A DNA stretch of 64,000 nt from an uncultured Gemmataceae bacterium (GTDB lineage Bacteria; Planctomycetota; Planctomycetia; Gemmatales; Gemmataceae). The notes under the pieces were generated by a model, which saw only the letters and a list, made by a program, of their open reading frames with translations, was not told the DNA's origin and did no database searches. Shown here in pieces: positions 1,828 to 15,521 of the stretch. Every line of letters begins with the position of its first letter. Position 1 is the first letter of the stretch. The stretch lies in assembly GCA_963750165.1 (NCBI GenBank), contig CAVVPN010000003.1, positions 1,376,001-1,440,000 of the forward strand. Direction: 5' to 3'. Both the position numbers and the translations under genes were made by a program.

Positions 1828-4800
1828 TCACGGCGCCACGGCCGTCACGGTGCCATCCGGGTTTAGCCGCGTGGCGTAGCGGCGCTGGAACTGGTAATAG
1901 TCGGCGCTGGTGATGTAGCCGCGCCCCGAATAGTCCAGGAACGCCCGGTATTTGGTCTGGCCGAGCACACTGTTCAGCGACTGCTGCATCGTCGTCAGGT
2001 CCACGTTGGTGACCTGACCGTCGCCGTTGACGTCGCCGAAGTAGCGGAAGAACGCCGCCGCCTGCGCCGCGAACGGGTCGCCCGCCGTCGCCAACCCCGG
2101 CCCGCCCGGGCCGCCGCCCTGGATCGCCGACTCGTTGAATTGCAGCGTGTAATTGCCGTCCTCCAGCGAGGCGAACTCCGTGCCCAGGCCGCTGAAGCTG
2201 TAAATCACCGTGTAGTTGCCGTTCGTGCGGTTGTAGGAAGCGCTGAACACGTTGGCGTGGATCAGCGTGCCGCCCGCCGCCCCGTACGGCCCGTTCACCT
2301 TGATGAGATCCAGGCCGCGGTTCGTCGTCGGTGATTGCAGGTTCGGGTCCAGGAACACGAAACTGCTGAACGTCACCTGAAGGTAACGGATCGCCGACTT
2401 CTGGCCGTTGTTGACGTTGCCGGCGGCTCCGGCCACCAGCGTACTCGTGCCGCCCTGGACCGCCGGGAGCGCGAAGTTCGCCGAGTAATTGACGCTGCCC
2501 ACGACCACCGGCGGCGGCGCCGAGGTGTTGCCGTAGGTCACGAAGCCGAGGCTGCTGTCGTCCAGGTCGTGCTCGATCAGCTGCTCGACCTGGAACAGCG
2601 GCAGGTTGGCGTTGCCGTTCCAGGTGTTGTTCTGAGCGGTCACGTCCATGCGGCCCAGCTGCGGCCCCACGGCGCCGTAGTTGAACGACTGCTCCACGCC
2701 GTTCGGCAGGGCGCCGAACGGAGCCGTGCCAGTGTTCAAATCGCGGATGGCCTGCGGGAAGATCGGCCCCGGGTTGGGCGTGGCCGTGGCCGAGGTATCC
2801 AGCGTGTAGCCGTTGAACGTGTTGTTGCCCGTGCTGTGGGCGGTCGAGCCCAGCGGTGTGCCGCTCAGCAGACCGGTGATGTCGCCGTAGTAGCCGACGT
2901 TGCCGGCCGGCCCGTTCGGCAGCGGTGTCGCCGACGCCGCCAGCTGGCCCGCATCCACGATGCCGCCGTTCTGCACCTGCAGGCCGCTGGCGAAGTTGCC
3001 GACGTTGTCGTTGTTGATGTGGTCGCCCTGCAGCAGCGCCGTGCCGCCGGCGACCAGCACGCCGACGTTCTGGTCCTGCACCGTGCTGTTCTGCAGGTTG
3101 GCGCTGGCCCTGGCCTGCACGCGGACGCCCACGGCGGTGACGTTGCCGCTGACCAGCTTGTCCACCGTGATGCCCGCGGTGGTGCCGATCTGCACGAACA
3201 CGCTGCCTGGGTTCACGTCAATGCCGATGCCGCCCGTCGTCTGCGGGTTGTCGATCGTCAGGTTTTGAATCTGCGTCGGGTTCGCCCGGGTGCTGGCGAT
3301 CACGGCCACCTGGCCCTTGATCGTGCCGCTGCCGTTGAGCACCACGCCGGCCGAGTCCAGGCTGACCGCCCCGCCGTTCACCGTGGCGTTGTTGTTAATG
3401 GCCCCGCTGACCGTCAGCGTGCCGACGTTCACGATCGTCAGGCCGGTGTAGGTGTTCAGGCCGGACAGCGTGAACTGGTCGCTGCTCTGCTTGATCAGGT
3501 TGCCGCTGCCGCTCATGACGCCGGCGAACACGGTGTTGGTGGCGTCGCCCGTCCTCAGGGTGTAGGGGTTGAGCGTCACGAAGGTGCCGGCCACGCCGGT
3601 CAGGTCGCCGATGGTTACGGTGGTCTGCAGGTCGAGCGTGGCGCCGGCCACGGGGATCGTGACAGAATTCGTGGGAAAGATGGGTTGCGCCACCGCCAGG
3701 CTCAGGGTGCCGGCGTTGATCGTCGTCAGGCCGGTGTAGGTGTTGAAGCCGCTCAGCGTCAGTGTGCCGCTGCCGTTTTTGGTCAGCGTGCTGCCGCTGC
3801 CGTTGATTACCGACGAAATGCTGCCGGTGCCGGTGTTGGTCACCGTCATCGGCTGGCCGTTCAGGTTCACCGGGTTGCTGCTGATGCTCAGCGTGCCGGC
3901 GTCGGTGATGTTCACGGGACCGGCGGTCACAGTGATGCCGCCGCTGATGCCGAAGTTGGTGCCGGTCAGGTTGACGCCGCCCGCGGCGCTCGCGGTCAGC
4001 AGGCCGCTGAACGTCGAGGTGCCGGTGCCGGCCGATTGCGTGATCGCGCCGGCGGTGATGGCGCCGGCGTTGACGTTGTTGGCGGTGGTGATCGTCAGGC
4101 TGGTCAGCGGCGCGCTGCCGCCGACCGCCCCGCTCAGATTGACGCTGCCGGCTGCGGTCGGCGTCAGCGTCAGCGTCTGGGCGCCGTTGATGGTGCTGGC
4201 GAAATTGATGTTGCCGCCGCCGGTGTTCGTCACGATGACGTTGCTGGCCAGGGTCACCGGGTTGTTGACCTGGATGTTGCCGGCGCTGGTTTGCAAATTC
4301 GTGTTGAGGAATGTGCCGGCGCCGGCCGGGGCAGCCCCGCCGACGGCAGTGTTGTCCAGCGTCAGGGTGCCGGCGGCGCTCAGGGCGGTGTTGCCTGCCC
4401 AGTCGAGGCGCACGGCGTCCGTGCTGGTGCCGCCGGTGGCGAACACGTCCTTGCCGGTGGCGGTCAGGGTGCCCGCCGAGGTCACCTGGCCGGTGTTCGC
4501 CCCGGTGTGATCGACCCAGGCGCCGCCGGCGCCGACGCCCGCGGCGCCGGTGCCGGCGGTCAGGCTGACGTTGCCGGTGCCGCCCGTGGACAGCGGCGCC
4601 CGCACGATCACGTCCCGTGCCGCCGACAGCGTGGCGTTGCCATTGGTGGCGCTGACCGTTCCCATCGTGATTATGTCGCCGGCCGTAGTGGTCAGGGACA
4701 GGTTGCGCGTTGTCGCCGTCGGGCCGTTGGCCGTGACCGTGTCGGCCGTGATGGTGCCGCCGGCCGTGATGATGATGACACCGTCCGCGGTGGTCACACT

Positions 4801-7800
4801 GGTCAACGTCACCGCGTCCAGCTCGCCGATCCAGATCCCGTGCGTGCCGGCGTTGGGAGTGTTGGTGGTCGCGGCGGTGATGCTGTTGGCCGCGGTGTCG
4901 ATCATGGCCGTCGCCCCGGGCGCTCCAATGTCCACGGCGGCGGTCAGGTTGACCACGTTGCCGCTGATGCGCGTGGCGTTGTTGCCGTCGTCAAGGATGG
5001 AACCGGTGGTCGCCGTCACGGTGGCGGTGGCGGAGGCGGACACGGTCGTCACGGTCAGATTGCCGCTGGCCGCGGTCACGGTGGCGGTGCCGGTGGCGGC
5101 GCTGACGTTGAGCACGTTGGCCCCGGTGGTGTTGCGGATGCTCACGTCGCCGGTGCCGCTGCTGGTGGCCGTGATGTTGCTCACGGTCGTGTCCAGGCTG
5201 ATGCCGGTGCCGGCCGAGGCGGCCAGGCTCGTGGCGGCGACATTGACCGCCGCGCCGTTGCCGTCGGTGATGGCGCCGCCGCCGGCGTTCAGCGTGGCCG
5301 TGGTGCCCGCGGTGATGAGGGCGTTGGCGGCAATGGCCTGCGACGCGATGTTCACCGATCCTGCGAAGTTCACGGCGCCGTTGACGGCGACCGAGTCGGT
5401 GCCCACGCCGGTGTTGATCTGGAAATTGGTGATGTTGCTGGCGGTGCCGTTGGCGCCGCTGACGGTGATGGTGTCGTTGCCGTCAACGGTGGTGGTGTCA
5501 ATCACCAGGCTGGTATCGTTGAAGAAGGCGGGCGTCTCGATGGCCACGCCGCCGCTTGTGCCGGTGACGCGGATGGCGGAGACGGTGCCGGTCTGGAAGT
5601 CGGTGCCGTTGGCGACGGTCAGCACGTCGTTGGCGCCGGGCAGGTTGAGCGTCGCCGTGGTCATGCCCGAGATGTCTACAGGCTGCAGGCCGGTGAAGGT
5701 GATGAGCGTGCCGCCGACATTGATGGTGCCGTTGCCCGTGGTGACGGCGTCGGGCAGGTAGGTGGCGGCGTGGGCGCCGTCGCCCTTGACGTACAGGCGG
5801 TCGGTGATGCCGGCACCAGCGGTGCCGCCGTGGAAGATGACCGGCACCGCGAAAAAGCCGCCGACGTTGTAATCGATCAGCAGCGAATCGCTGACGCCGT
5901 TCTGGCCGTTGAGGGTGTATTGCGACACGGCTGCCACCGGGTGCGAATCGACCAGGACGCCGTTGCGGAACAGTTGCAGAAGGCTGCCGTTCCGCTCCAG
6001 CACGAAGTTGGCGCCGCCGCCGGTCTCGGTGTAGCTGGCCGGGCCGCTGACGTTCAGCGTCACGTCGTTGCCGTCGCCGCCGGCGTAGCTGATGACGCCG
6101 GTGAAGGCGCCGACGCTGACCGTGGCGCCTTCCGGCAAGCCGTTGAAGGTGCCGGTGACGGGATCGGTGCCGTCGTTGTTGATGATCTTGACAACGGTGC
6201 CGGCGGCCGGCGCCGCGGCGCCGCCCACCAGGTTCAGCGTGGCGCCGCCAAGGGTCACGGTGCCGGTCACGTTGGTCTGGTCGTAGTCAGTGCCGGCGGT
6301 GGCGTAAGGGCTGTTCAACTGAACCTTGTAGGTTGAACCGGCGGCCAGCGTCAGATTGCCGGTGCCGAGGATGGCGGGACTGCTGCCGGGGAACAGCGTG
6401 CTGCCGCTGTTGACCTGCACGGTGCCGGCGGCGGTGCCGGTGCCGCCAAGGGTCGCGGTGTTGTTCACGCTGACCGCGCTGCCGGCGGCGGTGGAGCCGT
6501 TGACCAGCAACGTGCCGCCGTTCGCGGTCGTGGTGCCGGTGTAGGTGTTGGTGCCGCTCAGGGTCAGGGTGCCGGCGCCGCTCTTCGTCAGCGCCACGGT
6601 GCCGCTGCCGTTCTGGATTACGCCAGAGAAACTGCCGCCGCCAGCCCCGACCGTCAAGGTAACTGCGCCGGCCACGCCGCTGCTCACCGTGCCGGTGCCG
6701 TTCAGGCCGTTGATCGTCGGGCTGAGGCCGTTCAGGTCGAGCGTGGCAGTCGTGAGCGTGACGCTGGTGGTGGTGGGGACGGCGGCGGCACTGGTGAAGC
6801 GGAACGTGTCGCTGGCCGCACCGCTGAACGTTTCTGTACCTGGGGCGAAGCCGTTGTCCATCGCCGCCAGCTGCACCAGGCTGCTGCTGCCGGCGGTATT
6901 GATGGTCAGGGACGTGGCGGGGTTGGCGAAGGTGGTGGTCTCGAACGCCGGGCCGCCGGTGCTGCGGATCTGCGAGACGCCGTCGGTGAGGTTGCCGTTG
7001 TCTTCCAGGCTGGCCTGGGCGCCGGCGGGCAGGTTGAACACCAGGTTGCCAACGGTGCTGCCGGTCATGTCCACCGGGGCGAGGCCGTCGTAGGTGATCG
7101 TGTCGGTGGTGGTGCCGGCGCCGGTCGTGTCGTAGACGAGACTGCCGCTGTGCCCGGGGCCGGTGGTCGTGAAGGTCGCCGTCGCCATGTTGAACGTGCC
7201 GCCCTTGACGACAAGATTGTCCCCCGCGTTGTTGCCGCCGTGGTAATCGATGGGCGTGGTGAAGAAGCCGCCCGTGCCGCCGAAATTCACCGTCAGCGTG
7301 TCGGTGCCGCCGGCGGTGTTGAAGATCAGGTGGCCGGTGACCGACGCTTGCGGGAGGGTCAGCGTCTGGTTGTTGTTGGAGAGCGTGCCGCCGCTGGGGG
7401 CCGACTGGAACTGCTGGCTGGCGTCGGTGATGACGAAATTGCCCGCGCCGTCGGCGCTGACGGTCAGGCTGTTGTTCACGTTGGCGGTGTCGGCAATGGT
7501 CAGGTTGCCGGAGCCGTCGAGCGTCGGCGCCAGGGTGCCCCCGGTCATCACGGCCTGTATCTGGGCCGTGCTCAGGGCGTTGTCGTAGAAGCGGACGTCA
7601 TCGACCAGGCCCGGGAACCAGATATTATTGTGCGCGTCGCCGCCGATGGTCGTGTACGGGTTGATGGTCAGCGCCGCGGGGTTCACGTTCGTAAGGGAGT
7701 TCTGCTGAACGCCGTCCACGTACAGATAAATCGTGCCGCCCTGCCGCTCCCCGGAGATGAAGTGCCACTGGCCGTCGTTGACCGAGGTGGTGGACTGGAT

Positions 7801-8256
7801 GGTGGTGTCCGGGCCGTAGGAGCCGCCGCCGATGCCGAACCCGAACTTACCGCCGGCGTTGATGGTAGTGCCGAAGTCGTTGGCTACCCCGGGCCACTCC
7901 GAGGTGATGATCGGGTTGCCGTTGTAGAACTGGTTGCCGCCGCCGCTGGCGGTGGTCTTGATCCAGGCCGTGATGGTGAAGTCATTCTGGACCGGCCGGT
8001 TGATCTGGACGTATTGCCCACTGCCGGCGAAACTGAACGCCTGGCCGTAGACGCCGGGGGCGTAGGCGGCGGTGCCGACCCAGGTGCCGTTGTCGGTCCC
8101 CTGGCTGTCATTGGCGTTGCCTTCGGCCTGATACCAGTCCACCAGGGCGGGAGTCAGACGGATTTCAAGGGGCTCCAGCTGCAACCGCACCCGGTTGCGC
8201 CGGGCCGACGTGCCAGAGGAATTCCGAGACCACTTCTTCAGCCAGTTGAAGATCAC
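1828..8256 (-). CDS. Large secreted/surface protein: LamG-like domain, autotransporter-associated beta-strand repeats, beta-helix region, C-terminal dockerin-like Ca-binding domain
   Basis: GTG at 8256 with AGGAG RBS; RRNRVRLQLEPLEIRLTPA export motif; DFTITAWIK..NDGQWH..GLVDDVRFY (LamG); LTKSGAGTLTLSGTNTYTGTTTANGGTL repeats; FGDVNGDGQVTNVDL near the C-terminus. Confidence 0.85.
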   Translation of the reverse strand: MIFNWLKKWSRNSSGTSARRNRVRLQLEPLEIRLTPALVDWYQAEGNANDSQGTDNGTWVGTAAYAPGVYGQAFSFAGSGQYVQINRPVQNDFTITAWIKTTASGGGNQFYNGNPIITSEWPGVANDFGTTINAGGKFGFGIGGGSYGPDTTIQSTTSVNDGQWHFISGERQGGTIYLYVDGVQQNSLTNVNPAALTINPYTTIGGDAHNNIWFPGLVDDVRFYDNALSTAQIQAVMTGGTLAPTLDGSGNLTIADTANVNNSLTVSADGAGNFVITDASQQFQSAPSGGTLSNNNQTLTLPQASVTGHLIFNTAGGTDTLTVNFGGTGGFFTTPIDYHGGNNAGDNLVVKGGTFNMATATFTTTGPGHSGSLVYDTTGAGTTTDTITYDGLAPVDMTGSTVGNLVFNLPAGAQASLEDNGNLTDGVSQIRSTGGPAFETTTFANPATSLTINTAGSSSLVQLAAMDNGFAPGTETFSGAASDTFRFTSAAAVPTTTSVTLTTATLDLNGLSPTINGLNGTGTVSSGVAGAVTLTVGAGGGSFSGVIQNGSGTVALTKSGAGTLTLSGTNTYTGTTTANGGTLLVNGSTAAGSAVSVNNTATLGGTGTAAGTVQVNSGSTLFPGSSPAILGTGNLTLAAGSTYKVQLNSPYATAGTDYDQTNVTGTVTLGGATLNLVGGAAAPAAGTVVKIINNDGTDPVTGTFNGLPEGATVSVGAFTGVISYAGGDGNDVTLNVSGPASYTETGGGANFVLERNGSLLQLFRNGVLVDSHPVAAVSQYTLNGQNGVSDSLLIDYNVGGFFAVPVIFHGGTAGAGITDRLYVKGDGAHAATYLPDAVTTGNGTINVGGTLITFTGLQPVDISGMTTATLNLPGANDVLTVANGTDFQTGTVSAIRVTGTSGGVAIETPAFFNDTSLVIDTTTVDGNDTITVSGANGTASNITNFQINTGVGTDSVAVNGAVNFAGSVNIASQAIAANALITAGTTATLNAGGGAITDGNGAAVNVAATSLAASAGTGISLDTTVSNITATSSGTGDVSIRNTTGANVLNVSAATGTATVTAASGNLTVTTVSASATATVTATTGSILDDGNNATRISGNVVNLTAAVDIGAPGATAMIDTAANSITAATTNTPNAGTHGIWIGELDAVTLTSVTTADGVIIITAGGTITADTVTANGPTATTRNLSLTTTAGDIITMGTVSATNGNATLSAARDVIVRAPLSTGGTGNVSLTAGTGAAGVGAGGAWVDHTGANTGQVTSAGTLTATGKDVFATGGTSTDAVRLDWAGNTALSAAGTLTLDNTAVGGAAPAGAGTFLNTNLQTSAGNIQVNNPVTLASNVIVTNTGGGNINFASTINGAQTLTLTPTAAGSVNLSGAVGGSAPLTSLTITTANNVNAGAITAGAITQSAGTGTSTFSGLLTASAAGGVNLTGTNFGISGGITVTAGPVNITDAGTLSISSNPVNLNGQPMTVTNTGTGSISSVINGSGSTLTKNGSGTLTLSGFNTYTGLTTINAGTLSLAVAQPIFPTNSVTIPVAGATLDLQTTVTIGDLTGVAGTFVTLNPYTLRTGDATNTVFAGVMSGSGNLIKQSSDQFTLSGLNTYTGLTIVNVGTLTVSGAINNNATVNGGAVSLDSAGVVLNGSGTIKGQVAVIASTRANPTQIQNLTIDNPQTTGGIGIDVNPGSVFVQIGTTAGITVDKLVSGNVTAVGVRVQARASANLQNSTVQDQNVGVLVAGGTALLQGDHINNDNVGNFASGLQVQNGGIVDAGQLAASATPLPNGPAGNVGYYGDITGLLSGTPLGSTAHSTGNNTFNGYTLDTSATATPNPGPIFPQAIRDLNTGTAPFGALPNGVEQSFNYGAVGPQLGRMDVTAQNNTWNGNANLPLFQVEQLIEHDLDDSSLGFVTYGNTSAPPPVVVGSVNYSANFALPAVQGGTSTLVAGAAGNVNNGQKSAIRYLQVTFSSFVFLDPNLQSPTTNRGLDLIKVNGPYGAAGGTLIHANVFSASYNRTNGNYTVIYSFSGLGTEFASLEDGNYTLQFNESAIQGGGPGGPGLATAGDPFAAQAAAFFRYFGDVNGDGQVTNVDLTTMQQSLNSVLGQTKYRAFLDYSGRGYITSADYYQFQRRYATRLNPDGTVTAVAP

Positions 8257-8651
8257 AGGTGCGACTCCTGAGCAAAGAGAATGCGGTCTGACCCAGGGCA
8301 ACAGGGAAACCGGCAGGGCCTGGGGCGCGGAGACAAAAGTTGTTACGCGAATCAAACGGAATGATTCTGCAGACCCCTCGTTTTGTGCCCATCCTGCGGC
8401 GCATTGGGAAAACGCATTATGTGTTGGTAGGATGTTACGATCCGGCAAAAAGTTCCGTCAAACGAAAAAGCACCGATTCTGCCCGCCGCGCCAATATAGC
8501 TCCCGTACAGCCGGCAGATCGGAGATTCTTGCCAGATTCGCTACACCTGGCAAATTCACTCCGTTTCTCCCGGGCGCCCCTGCCGACAGCTGACGTAGTG
8601 TATAGTGTTACCCCGGCGCTCTCCCCTTCCATCACCCTGCGAGGACCGGCC

Positions 8652-10993: not shown

Positions 10994-11001
10994 CCTCCTT
11001 C

Positions 11002-11067
11002 TCGTGGGGCAGACATTCCTGTCTGCCATCTTTTGAAGGTTGGCAGACAGGAATGTCTGCCCCACGA
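11002..11067. repeat. REP-like doublet GTGGGGCAGACATTCCTGTCTGCC
   Basis: Two inverted palindromic units just after the stop codon; same unit at 62257-62282. Confidence 0.85.
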
Positions 11068-11076
11068 AAATTGCTC

Positions 11077-11105
11077 TTGCCACGCAGGCCGACCGTCGCT
11101 ATACG
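11077..11105 (+). promoter_or_regulatory. Putative sigma70-type promoter
   Basis: TTGCCA-N17-TATACG directly upstream of the structured region. Confidence 0.5.
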
Positions 11106-11111
11106 CCCCCC

Positions 11112-11426
11112 TCGTTGTTGACGACGGCTGACGCCACCGCCGCGGACGACACCCGTTTCACACAGCCGAACTCTGCTGCGTGCCGGATTTTGCGGGAAAC
11201 CGGCACTGTCCGCCCTCCTGGGCAGTAGCGTTCATCTCGCTGGGACCAGTGGTTTTGGGTCGGCCACCCCAGTGGGAGCTTCGCAGTAGAGTTCTTGTCG
11301 GACCGGGAGCCGGGCCCTTGTGCCCGGCTCCCGGGGATACACCGCGACCAGCCTTCCCCTGAGCCGTCGGTCGGCGCCGCCGTGTGCGGGCCGGCCGACG
11401 TTCCAGGGGAGGGCTTGTCGCATTTT
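11112..11426 (+). ncRNA. Putative large structured non-coding RNA, family unassigned
   Basis: Nested stems, including 11168-11180/11282-11294 closing three hairpins, plus hairpins at 11303-11334 and 11344-11421 followed by a T-run; most non-Watson-Crick pairs are G-U on the + strand; no credible ORF. Confidence 0.6.
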
Positions 11427-11550
11427 TATACTCTTGCATGTGCAATTTTTGCAAGCCTGCCCCATTTCACCGCTGTAAAAAAGGTCGCCCAACCGGTCGT
11501 GTCGCCGACCCACATTGCGAAATTTCCAGGGTTTTTCGGCTTTCCGGCGT

Positions 11551-11568
11551 TTGGCACACCATGTGCAA
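11551..11568 (+). promoter_or_regulatory. Putative sigma54 (-24/-12) promoter
   Basis: TTGGCACACCATGTGCAA: GG-N10-GC with TGGCAC core, ~145 bp upstream of the CDS at 11711. Confidence 0.5.
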
Positions 11569-11710: not shown

Positions 11711-12268
11711 ATGGCCGCCCTGCAACTGGCCATCGCCCTGGTTTGGCTGTCCACGCCCCCCGATCAATTTACCTGCCCTGAGATGAACCAGTGGCACCGG
11801 GTGCTGGCCGGGCCGATCCGGGTGCTGGCCCTGCGCTGGGAGGTGCTCGACCCGCGCGAGGCCGGCCACCTGCTCGCCCGCGCCGAGGACTTCAAGGACG
11901 ACCTGCGCACCCTGCAGGAGCGCTGCGAGGAGTTGCGCACGGCGCCGCCGCTGTGCGAGGCCGAGCGTTTCCCGGGCCGCGATCTGGTCAGCGACATGAT
12001 GGCCTTCAACCGCGCCTATCACGACAACCTCAGCAAGCGGCTTGAACTGGACCGCATCCACGCCGAGGAGTTGCGTCAGGCACTGCAGGAGACCGATCAG
12101 CTGCACCGCGTTTGGAATACCGTCCACGAGATCAACTGCCCGTATTACTACGTCACCTACCGCCGCCAGGCCCTGCGGCAGTTGCGCGAACTGATCGGCG
12201 AGCAGGCGTTCTACACCGGCAACCTGCCGCCGCACGTGCCGCTCTGGCGCATCCCGGAAGCCCGTTGA
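11711..12268 (+). CDS. Hypothetical helical protein
   Basis: AGAGG RBS, GC3-biased codons, followed by a terminator-like hairpin. Confidence 0.75.
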   Translation: MAALQLAIALVWLSTPPDQFTCPEMNQWHRVLAGPIRVLALRWEVLDPREAGHLLARAEDFKDDLRTLQERCEELRTAPPLCEAERFPGRDLVSDMMAFNRAYHDNLSKRLELDRIHAEELRQALQETDQLHRVWNTVHEINCPYYYVTYRRQALRQLRELIGEQAFYTGNLPPHVPLWRIPEAR

Positions 12269-12338: not shown

Positions 12339-13793
12339 CTACTTGCCGCCGCCGCGGTTAATGGTGAGGCCGATGACGCGCGCCCGCGGCCCGGTCACGC
12401 GCACGACGATGCCTGCGGGTTCGCTGCTGCCGCTCGAGATCAAGGACACGAGCACGACGCGCGTCTGCGCCGATGGCAGCTTCAGCAGATACGCGGAGTC
12501 CGCCGGACTCGCCTTCTTGGCATACTCCTCCACCGTCACCACGTTGCCCACCTTGAACGACGCCTGCTGTTGCTTGAGTTGCTCCTTCATCCCCTCGAAC
12601 ACCATCTTGAAGAAGCCGTCCAGGTCTTCGCGCTTCGTGAACTGGGCCGCGCTTGCGAAGTTGAAGGGCACGTCCGTCGATTTCTGGAACATTTTGAAGT
12701 CGGTGTTCAGGATGCTGTTGAGGAACTGTCGGGTTACGTCCCGCGAACGCTGCTGCGTGTTGGCGAAGAACAGATCCGTGTCGCTTTTCGCCAGGTCGAA
12801 CTTGGCCGCGCGCTCCTGCCACCACTGCTTCCAGGCAGCCTGGGCCTTGCCGCGCACTGCCGGGTCGTCGGTCACCGCGGCCTGCGGGGCGGCGTTGCCG
12901 GCAACGCGCTGCAACAGATCCTCGGCCTGCTCGGCGTAGCGGAACGGGCCGTCGGCCAGCAGCGCGATCAACACCGGCACGCCGATCTTGTCGCGAGCGC
13001 ACAGCAGCCCCTGGGCGGCGCGGAAGCGAACCATCGCCTCCTTATCGGCCAGCAGTTTGCGCACCTCGGCGCGCTGGGTAGTGCTGCCCTCGCGGCCGAG
13101 CACCAGCGCCGCCACGGCGCGCCGCAGCGGCGACTTGTCTGTCAGGGCCGTCGCCAGCACCGGGTCGATCTTCTTCGCGTCGATGGTCAGCGTCAGCACC
13201 GTCGCCACCATTTCATCCTCCACGAGGTCGTTGGCGGCGTAGGGCAGGAAGTTCAGCAGCAGCGGCACGGCCCCCTGCGGCCGGCGCTCGCGCAGCAGCC
13301 GCACGGCCGCCCCGGTCTGGGCGCTGGTGAACTTCCCCTCGATCTCCTGCATGATCTTGCTGGCGCGGCGGCTGGTCTCCAGATCACGGCCTTCCATGAA
13401 GGTGCGCAGCAACGGCAGCACCCGCGGGCCTTCCTTGAGCAGATCCCGGGTGGCCTTGTCGCGCACCTTGAAGGACTTGTCGGCCAGGTTCTTGATGATC
13501 GGCTCCAGGCGGGTGCGGTCCTGCTCGGTGGGAATGCGGTTGTTCAGGAATGTCAGCAGGGCGGGCCCGTCGGTGGCGACCCTGGCTTCCTTGAGCAGGT
13601 GCTCATCCTCGGCGATCTGCGGATCGACGGGCAGAGCGAACAGTTCGAAGAACCGCGACTGCTGCGGTCCCTGGGCCTTCTTGTCCTTCTTCTCCATCGC
13701 CTGCTGGCCGCGCAGCCCGGCGGTCGGCCCGCCGACGGCCAGTGCCAGCGCCGCCAGCAAACCGAGGGTGACAACCATCCGTTTCATGGGCAC
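12339..13793 (-). CDS. Exported HEAT-repeat protein
   Basis: Signal peptide; LADKSFKVRDKATRDL, LRRAVAALVLG, VRFRAAQGL repeats. Confidence 0.8.
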   Translation of the reverse strand: MPMKRMVVTLGLLAALALAVGGPTAGLRGQQAMEKKDKKAQGPQQSRFFELFALPVDPQIAEDEHLLKEARVATDGPALLTFLNNRIPTEQDRTRLEPIIKNLADKSFKVRDKATRDLLKEGPRVLPLLRTFMEGRDLETSRRASKIMQEIEGKFTSAQTGAAVRLLRERRPQGAVPLLLNFLPYAANDLVEDEMVATVLTLTIDAKKIDPVLATALTDKSPLRRAVAALVLGREGSTTQRAEVRKLLADKEAMVRFRAAQGLLCARDKIGVPVLIALLADGPFRYAEQAEDLLQRVAGNAAPQAAVTDDPAVRGKAQAAWKQWWQERAAKFDLAKSDTDLFFANTQQRSRDVTRQFLNSILNTDFKMFQKSTDVPFNFASAAQFTKREDLDGFFKMVFEGMKEQLKQQQASFKVGNVVTVEEYAKKASPADSAYLLKLPSAQTRVVLVSLISSGSSEPAGIVVRVTGPRARVIGLTINRGGGK

Positions 13794-13907: not shown

Positions 13908-15521
13908 TCAATAGCCGCCGTTGAAGCCGAAGGGTTGGTACGCCACGACGCGCACGTCGTCACCGCGCACCGACACCACCAGCGCCACCGAGCCGAACAG
14001 AATATTTTGGTCGCGCACGTCGGCCGTGGCCACGAACAGGCCGCTGTGTCGGTAGGTCTGCAGGAACGACTTCCATCCCTGCGGGGCCTTCTTGGCGAAC
14101 TCCGCCGCGGGCATGAAGCGCTTGAACGTGAGCGGATAGCCGAACTGATTGGAGGCCATCAACTGCGGATAATACTGGTCCAGCTGAGCCCGCGTCGTCA
14201 GCCACGAGAACGACACGGGTTGCATAACGCCCTTGCCGTAGCCACCCCCGTAGGGGTTCATCTGGTTCTGGCGGGTGAACAGGGCAAAGGGCGCGTCCGT
14301 GAGACGCCGAAACGCCTGCGCGTCGTGTTCGTTCAAACAGCGGACGAATTCCACGGCGACGGCGTAAGCGCGGGGCAGCGATCCCGTCCGCGGCCCGACG
14401 CCGGTGAGTGCCGGCAGCGACCGCCGGCCGCTGCGCTCCTGCCACCAGGTGACCCAGCCGTCGTGGTATTGTTTGCGGACGTTGCCGAAGGTCGCCTCCA
14501 GCGGTTGCTGATTCGGTTGCGGTGTGTTCGGCGTGTAGACCGCGGACATCGGCCCCGAGTAGATGCCGTTCATGTTGGGTTGCTTGGGCAAGGGCGGCAT
14601 CTTCTTGTCGAACTTCGGATACAGCGCCAGCGGCGCTGAGTCGCCGGCCAGGCGCAGCAGCACTTCCTCCGCCCGCTCCGCCCACGGCAGCGGGGCCTCG
14701 GCCAGCATGTCGAGCAGCACCGGGACGGCGGCCCGGTCGCCGCCGCCGAGCAGCCCCTGCGCGGCGCGGAAGCGCACGCCCGGGTCGGTGTCTTGCAAAC
14801 ACTGTCGCGCCACCTGTTGATGCCGGGCGCTGCCGTGACGGCCCAGCACCAGCGCCGCGGCGGCGCGGCGCGCGGGGATTGGGTCTGTTATCGCCACGCG
14901 CATCAGGTCAATGGTTTCGCCTTCGGGCATACCAATTTCCCACAGGGTTGCCAGCGCCTCCTCTTCTCCGTGTTCGTCCGCCACCGGCAAATATTGCAGC
15001 AGCGCCGCCGTGGCGCCGGCCGGCTTGCGGTCGCGCACCAGGCGCAGCGCGGCGCTGACCGCCTCCGGCCCCTGGCGGCGGACCATCAACTCGCGCAGCC
15101 GCTGCAAACGACGTTTCAACTCCAGGCCGGCGGTTTTGTCCAGTTCCGCCAGCGGCGGCAGCGCCGAGGGGCCGACGGCGATGAGATCCTTCAGGGCCTG
15201 TTCGCGGACGCGGTAGTTGCTGGACGACAGCCGCGGCAGGGCATGGGTGACGCGCTGGTAGGGCGACTTCGGCCCGGCCTGCCAGCCGACCACTTCCAGC
15301 AGTTCGCGCGGCTTGACCAGCGGCGCGGGCGGCCGGGCCGCGGTGTGCTGCCAGCGCAGGAACTCGAGCAGGGCTGGGCCGTCAGTCGGCAGCTGGAGGC
15401 CGCGCAGCAGCCGCTCGTCGTCGGCGCACCGGGCGGCGTGCGCCGCGGTCGGGACGCTGGGCTCCAGAAACCCACCGAACGCCAGCAGCAGCATGGGCAA
15501 GGCAGACACTCCAGTGGGCAT
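13908..15521 (-). CDS. Exported HEAT-repeat protein (paralogue of 12339-13793)
   Basis: ATG at 15521 with AGGAGG RBS; shares TDGPALL.FL, RRAAAALVLG, VRFRAAQGLL, AE.AE..L.R.AG with its neighbour. Confidence 0.8.
   Translation of the reverse strand: MPTGVSALPMLLLAFGGFLEPSVPTAAHAARCADDERLLRGLQLPTDGPALLEFLRWQHTAARPPAPLVKPRELLEVVGWQAGPKSPYQRVTHALPRLSSSNYRVREQALKDLIAVGPSALPPLAELDKTAGLELKRRLQRLRELMVRRQGPEAVSAALRLVRDRKPAGATAALLQYLPVADEHGEEEALATLWEIGMPEGETIDLMRVAITDPIPARRAAAALVLGRHGSARHQQVARQCLQDTDPGVRFRAAQGLLGGGDRAAVPVLLDMLAEAPLPWAERAEEVLLRLAGDSAPLALYPKFDKKMPPLPKQPNMNGIYSGPMSAVYTPNTPQPNQQPLEATFGNVRKQYHDGWVTWWQERSGRRSLPALTGVGPRTGSLPRAYAVAVEFVRCLNEHDAQAFRRLTDAPFALFTRQNQMNPYGGGYGKGVMQPVSFSWLTTRAQLDQYYPQLMASNQFGYPLTFKRFMPAAEFAKKAPQGWKSFLQTYRHSGLFVATADVRDQNILFGSVALVVSVRGDDVRVVAYQPFGFNGGY

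Follow-up and report, generated by a model that had tools for sequence, protein, structure and literature searches.

The region at positions 11077 to 11427 on the + strand of the window (the whole 64-kb stretch of DNA that was analysed, from an uncultured Gemmataceae bacterium) almost certainly contains a conserved functional RNA, and it apparently represents a genuine, undescribed structured ncRNA class of the Planctomycetia. It is the RNA class that is new; the mechanism may be of a known kind. An earlier note, made from the letters of the sequence, had placed here a standalone and possibly undescribed ncRNA of ~310 nt. The standalone and undescribed character is now strongly supported by the lack of an Rfam match, the single copy, the covarying homologues and the promoter found in Gemmatales. 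The proposed length was not retained, since the conserved unit comprises ~180 nt, while leader and terminator are variable and the ~310-nt transcript is a prediction.

The conserved core (~180 nt, 11160-11342) consists of a four-way junction without linker bases (P1 to P4/P5), followed by a 3' hairpin. The junction domain (11168..11294, +), supported by covariation, is closed by P1, a stem of 13 bp (11168-11180/11282-11294) with a 3' strand of 13 nt in 79/85 homologues; this set of 85 was not chosen by exact pattern, and one truncated row was dropped from it. The four G/C bases of the junction can pair in two registers. Hairpin P2 (11181..11205, +) exposes loop L2 with the motif GCGGGA at 11192-11197, GCGGG being present in 82/85 and GCGGGA in 76/85 homologues. 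Hairpin P3 (11206..11225, +) carries the anti-Shine-Dalgarno-like loop L3, GCCCUCCU; its CCCUCCU was found in 48/85 homologues, with other sequence in several lineages. The remaining arm (11226..11281, +) is composed of P4a, a 6x1 internal loop, P4b, an asymmetric loop and P5. Its loop L5 (11257-11261) reads GGGUC in 83/85 and UGGGUC in 79/85 homologues, and the 5' side of the P4 internal loop is 5-7 nt long in 80/85, with a 1-nt bulge opposite in 80/85. A U-rich linker joins the junction domain to P6 (11303-11334), which together with a GGA-containing tail occupies 11303..11342 (+). P6 covaries and was found in 71/85 homologues; some lineages have lost it, and there a U-run comes after P1. 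Based on these retention counts of loops and helices, the minimal element comprises the junction and its loops L2 and L5. Such fixed helix and loop lengths, together with two fixed loops, would fit recognition by three-dimensional shape. The 13-bp stem and the three inner hairpins described in the earlier note are thus present where they had been placed, including P3 (CTGTCC/GGGCAG), which lies outside the single-sequence MFE structure but is backed by comparative folding.

For tertiary contacts, a mutual-information scan (L2 columns excluded) gave no credible covarying pair. Loss of L3 tends to go with loss of the tail, as 103 of 108 tail-positive sequences have L3 and 26 of 46 tail-negative sequences lack it. 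A pseudoknot between the two was rejected, because no compensation was seen across 18 variants (6.9 observed vs 7.5 shuffled).

Covarying homologues, named by the earlier note as a check, were found across the class Planctomycetia. In the model-fitted alignment two-sided changes occurred in 54 of 55 pairs, and 94.6% of the cells could pair compared to 70.4% after shuffling and 37-44% after sliding, in an alignment that leans toward its own model. In the unfitted MAFFT alignment of 22 sequences, 38/55 pairs changed on both sides, and RNAalifold gave the same helices unaided, with a different register at the four G/C bases of the junction and at P5. Folding energy was similarly low on both strands (z of -7.3 on the + strand and -6.6 on the - strand relative to shuffled sequences), so that the strand is not given by energy alone. 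It is fixed by the 3785 stem cells of 73 homologues, in which G-U/U-G (366) far exceeds A-C/C-A (46), in agreement with the G-U bias from which a + strand RNA had been proposed. The region had been called free of ORFs, which does not apply, as several chance ORFs of at least 60 aa overlap it; coding is argued against by homologue loops that differ in length by single bases.

In the source genome a sigma70-type promoter is predicted at 11077..11105 (+), with a -35 hexamer TTGCCA (11077-11082), a 17-nt spacer and a -10 hexamer TATACG (11100-11105). The hexamers are located as the earlier note had given them, and from them a transcription start is predicted near 11112 (+); a strict promoter scan of the window did not list this promoter. 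Of the 29 Gemmatales copies, 22 show a TTG...TA pattern 67-137 nt 5' of the core, compared to 2 of the other 44; by this pattern no promoter was found for relocated copies outside Gemmatales. The 5' leader (11112..11167, +) is variable and folds locally into a hairpin that is not conserved; BLASTN matches to homologues span only positions ~90-278 of the query, without this leader. An outer stem 11118-11124/11295-11301 had also been proposed. These segments are complementary, but in the ensemble 11118-11124 is paired with 11156-11162 (6/7 bases at p 0.87-0.93). At the 3' end, a long terminator-like hairpin with a U-run (11344..11427, +; -66 kcal/mol), the sequence of which is not conserved, contains the stem 11344-11421 followed by ATTTTT; this stem and the hairpin 11303-11334 had been correctly positioned before. 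A hairpin with a U-run follows 33 of the 51 copies that have no same-strand gene of the dcw (cell-wall/division) operon next (8/51 when shuffled), and 6 of the 21 copies that have one (2/21 when shuffled). Predicted promoters and terminators are therefore associated with the relocated copies. Four RNA runs from one study covered the Blastopirellula marina locus (L116) in contigs of 3-14 kb with flat depth throughout.

Some other elements of the window surround the RNA. A REP-like nested palindrome is situated at 10998-11071, after an alcohol dehydrogenase gene, and pieces of it of 16 and 23 nt are present 109 and 96 times genome-wide. The window also encodes a repeat-rich protein of 2206 aa, probably secreted, at 1828-8448 (-), and two neighbouring HEAT-repeat proteins at 12339-13793 and 13908-15518 (-). 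A 185-aa ORF (11711-12268, +) without a Pfam match adjoins the RNA in several Gemmataceae loci; it is single-copy in 32/36 Gemmatales and present in 0/115 other genomes of the class. A putative sigma54-like promoter (TTGGCAC-N5-GTGCA, judged against the sigma54 consensus) lies ahead of this ORF, with an inverted repeat upstream of it that could be an activator site (11434-11456 and 11551-11567 for the two elements).

Searches of the window against Rfam 15, which covers riboswitches, T-box, raiA, OLE and ribozymes, gave 0 matches at gathering thresholds. With E up to 10 no match spanned the core; the best weak matches were miRNA hairpins on the flanking palindrome and terminator, and P6 was touched by only two matches, both below 14 bits. 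Four homologues (L052, L116, L055 and L092) were also without an Rfam match, so that the outcome of a known RNA, named in advance as refuting, is absent. The earlier note had seen no hallmarks of tmRNA, RNase P, SRP or 6S RNA, and each of these does have its own gene outside this region. As identities, RNase P, SRP and tmRNA could be rejected because the genome's own copies score above cut-off at other places, while 6S RNA was rejected since its gene (RF00013, 56.2 bits) is located on contig C12 and the present fold is a junction, not a rod. ARAGORN reported nothing in the window. A bacterial Y RNA was discarded as well, as no PF05731 (Ro60/TROVE) match was found in the source genome. In the literature consulted the RNA was undescribed: no planctomycete term occurs in the main text of PMC11109978 or PMC5737381, whose supplements might list it, and one supplement of PMC8632094 showed no match to it.

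BLASTN revealed one full-length copy in the source genome and matches in 28 of 60 relatives, from which 22 loci, including that of the window, were taken as true homologues; these align over about 11160-11346 only. The covariance model R1, built from the MAFFT alignment of the 22 loci, matched 55/151 Planctomycetia genomes; with R2, for which 73 sequences were used, 69/151 were matched, each of them once. In total, over 150 homologues were collected. An exact-pattern scan of GTDB returned at least 120 stretches; among the 80 matches listed, 76 pass the model; these are titled mostly Pirellulales, Gemmatales or Planctomycetales, with Blastopirellula marina DSM 3645 among them. The other four, all from outside the class (L115, L126, L140 and L175), failed the model and were rejected. 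One locus titled Acidobacteriaceae (L143, genome G368) passed it and carries a Gemmataceae-type promoter. Its label is suspect, since the Gemmatales-specific ORF lies in the same genome at a distance of ~2.6 kb from the RNA, suggesting that the record was mislabelled or misbinned. In a phylum sample of 151 genomes R2 gave 9 matches, namely the source genome, seven others from its class and one weak match; the latter, the sole one out of class, falls within an ORF and was rejected, so that the other classes of the phylum in this sample had no credible match. Viral contigs, phages and plasmids gave no match to the RNA, nor did R2 match in 11 out-of-class mraY neighbourhoods, with the in-class control scoring (12 of 30 loci).

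No copy of the RNA was obtained from 82 of the 151 class genomes, where a miss means 'not found', as the model scans score few candidates per genome. These 82 include 22 of the 30 other genomes of the source family, and in family f5 the RNA was found in 0/36. It is therefore dispensable. Five negative genomes were still negative under deeper scoring, and together with 18 empty regions upstream of mraY this points to true repeated loss.

With respect to gene context, the RNA is located directly upstream of mraY in 26 of the 28 genomes that have both; in the other two it lies near contig ends. The usual 5' neighbour of the mraY-linked RNA is a Mur-ligase (murF-like) gene. Pfam searches of 137 crudely picked flanking ORFs from 73 loci gave a Mur ligase on the 5' side in 23 and an MraY-family protein on the 3' side in 11, the remaining ORFs being unrelated. 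In some copies inside the dcw operon 30-50 nt separate the upstream ORF from the start of the core, and a terminator was not detected. There are 41 RNA-positive genomes without an over-cut-off mraY, among them the source genome, in which tblastn queries with murF, mraY and murG were unmatched and only murB was found. In genomes that have lost murF and mraY, it is often beside a remaining Mur ligase gene, and then murG or a terminator follows; elsewhere the 3' genes are unrelated and often convergent. Conversely, 18 mraY-positive class genomes do not have the RNA. Upstream of mraY in these 18 there was no match at E < 0.05 (one region being truncated), and most of the spacers are too short for the RNA. 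No association of the RNA with mobile elements or metabolic genes was seen. Its retention without mraY and its own promoter and terminator signals indicate that the RNA is selected apart from its neighbours. It was kept after loss of cell-wall and division genes, so that an independent function is probable.

Across the class, 105 of 151 Planctomycetia genomes lack an over-cut-off mraY, compared to 137 of 151 genomes with one in the phylum sample. Genomes of family f37, which is in a different class of the phylum, have a conserved and stably folding element of another kind 5' of mraY, found in 12/12 (L277:1190-1345, L282:1140-1275, L292:1090-1260). It has a long closing stem, an internal hairpin and GAGGGAAACG...GGTATCGGCCG, with no credible Rfam match and no R2 match. 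This element could be another undescribed RNA that occupies the position upstream of mraY; homology between the two is only a possibility.

Taken together, we lean towards a trans-acting RNA of the class Planctomycetia that is recognised by its shape, most simply by a protein. The gene would encode a structured ncRNA in which a rigid four-way junction presents the two nearly invariant G-rich loops L2 and L5. The RNA would most likely work inside a ribonucleoprotein, with L2 and L5 binding the protein and the RNA serving as scaffold or decoy. Its ancestral seat would be the dcw operon, between the Mur ligase (murF-like) gene and mraY, a position that would tie the level of the RNA to the envelope-synthesis genes. 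On decay of the operon the RNA would have been kept, the Gemmatales copies gaining a promoter and a terminator of their own. Partner profiling gave no distribution that matches that of the RNA among mraY, the 3' ORF, CsrA and SpoVG. CsrA is present in 151/151 and SpoVG in 148/151 class genomes, the latter nearly always single, and being near-universal neither tracks the patchy presence of the RNA.

Several known systems bear a partial likeness to this RNA. U1 snRNA also has a four-way junction, a U-rich linker and a terminal hairpin. This likeness is topological only, as the present RNA has no U1 motifs and no Rfam match, and no Hfq match exists in the source genome. The EAR antitermination RNA is likewise a structured RNA within a long envelope operon, but the RNA studied here persists as a separate unit away from the operon. 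In common with CsrB/RsmZ, it has GGA in a hairpin loop and a host with many CsrA paralogues; it differs from them in its rigid junction and in the number of conserved GGA sites, about two, and its best-conserved loop has no GGA. The raiA motif RNA (PMC10861870) is comparable as an orphan ncRNA that has several stems, acts in trans, is confined to certain lineages and typically lies between two conserved genes. It belongs to Bacillota and Actinomycetota and has other neighbours (PMC10861870), and no Rfam raiA match was obtained here; the likeness is one of situation, not homology. Rli31 of Listeria shares a C-rich apical loop, which SpoVG binds in vitro according to PMC4959528. Rli31 is a long hairpin with a terminator (PMC4959528), whereas in the present RNA the C-rich loop is dispensable and SpoVG, present in 148/151 class genomes, does not follow the distribution of the RNA. 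Rhodopirellula-1 is the only motif listed with Planctomycetes in the main text of PMC2864571; it is a short AAC...GUU hairpin that also occurs in Proteobacteria, and its sequence and fold are unrelated.

The alternatives to a protein-bound RNA are all less probable. Pairing with other RNAs in trans, through L5 UGGGU to the NCCA 3' ends of tRNAs and/or through L3 CCCUCCU masking Shine-Dalgarno sequences, is considered unlikely. Binding of tRNA 3' NCCA ends is known from the T-box antiterminator, L15 of RNase P and the 23S P-loop, and L5 UGGGUC (79/85) contains UGG and resembles the P-loop of the source genome's 23S rRNA, GACUGGGGCGGUC. L3 shares CCUCCU with the 16S rRNA 3' end, which in the source genome is GGAUCACCUCCUUU, and Shine-Dalgarno sequences are in use there (AGGAG at the expected position in 318 of 2807 ORFs vs 21 in a background window). 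However, both likenesses extend over 5-7 nt and could easily arise by chance, L3 is missing in 37/85 homologues, no mRNA target stood out among 5429 start regions of one genome, and no match to the T-box family was found in Rfam. An Hfq-dependent base-pairing sRNA in particular was rejected, since the source genome (93% complete) has no match to PF17209. A cis element of the dcw mRNA, acting in processing, stability or EAR-like antitermination and later moved to other operons, is slightly less credible still. The location directly 5' of mraY in 26/28 genomes and close 3' of the Mur ligase stop speaks for it, as does the absence of a detected terminator in 15 of 21 dcw-internal copies. This role fits only the ancestral position, as the RNA is kept in the 41 genomes without mraY and missing from 18 with it, and the Gemmatales copies have a predicted promoter and often a terminator of their own, with a next gene that is often convergent.

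A sponge for CsrA-family proteins resembling CsrB/RsmZ, working through the GGA of L2 and the AGGGA of the tail, is improbable. Known sponges of the CsrB type have many GGA loops and little conserved architecture. Here the mean number of GGA per core is 4.5 versus 3.2 in shuffled sequences, ANGGA is missing in 65 and single in 65 of 157 homologues (0-1 in 130/157), and L5, the most conserved loop, contains no GGA. These observations outweigh the 2-16 CsrA matches in each of the 151 class genomes (7 in the source genome), the GGA end of L2 in 76/85 homologues, the common GGA tail and the recognition of GGA hairpin loops by CsrA (PMC13443453). For a ribozyme or ligand-binding RNA, with the two loops docking as an active site, the multistem junction, the fixed geometry and the two invariant loops could be quoted, as well as the argument of the raiA paper that catalysis is frequent among large, conserved ncRNAs of bacteria (PMC10861870). 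This reading is very improbable in view of the few invariant bases, the lack of a covarying tertiary pair, the L3-tail pseudoknot that failed its control, and the missing tie to mobile elements or metabolic genes. An attenuator or riboswitch of the 3' gene, one of the options of the earlier note, and a MITE or DNA palindrome are largely refuted and hardly credible. The Gemmatales-specific ORF does adjoin the RNA in several Gemmataceae loci, but it is present in many RNA-negative genomes, and 16/16 regions upstream of it were without a match. The proposed anti-terminator pairing of 11212-11221 reaches -19.7 kcal/mol as an isolated duplex but has a probability of 0.0 in the full transcript, and the terminator sequence it would pair with is not conserved. 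A cis-regulatory leader was thus rejected, the 3' genes being varied, unrelated and often on the opposite strand. A MITE/REP repeat or DNA palindrome was rejected on the single copy per positive genome and the G-U to A-C ratio of 366 to 46; the many dispersed copies, named in advance as a refuting outcome, did not occur.

Returning to the trans-acting, protein-bound RNA, a more far-reaching version can be put forward tentatively, and as a whole it is rather unlikely: that this is a new functional class of bacterial ribonucleoprotein RNA which arose in the dcw operon of the Planctomycetia ancestor, acts in the unusual envelope growth or the budding division of these bacteria or binds tRNA 3' ends via its P-loop-like loop, and was kept after loss of murF and mraY. 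Lineage-wide classes of multistem bacterial ncRNAs are few. The present one offers over 150 homologues, a fold backed by covariation, two loops to mutate, natural lineages of loss, and a cultured carrier, Blastopirellula marina DSM 3645. Its probable origin in the dcw operon and its survival past the loss of murF and mraY may give access to how the envelope grows in bacteria with FtsZ-independent division.
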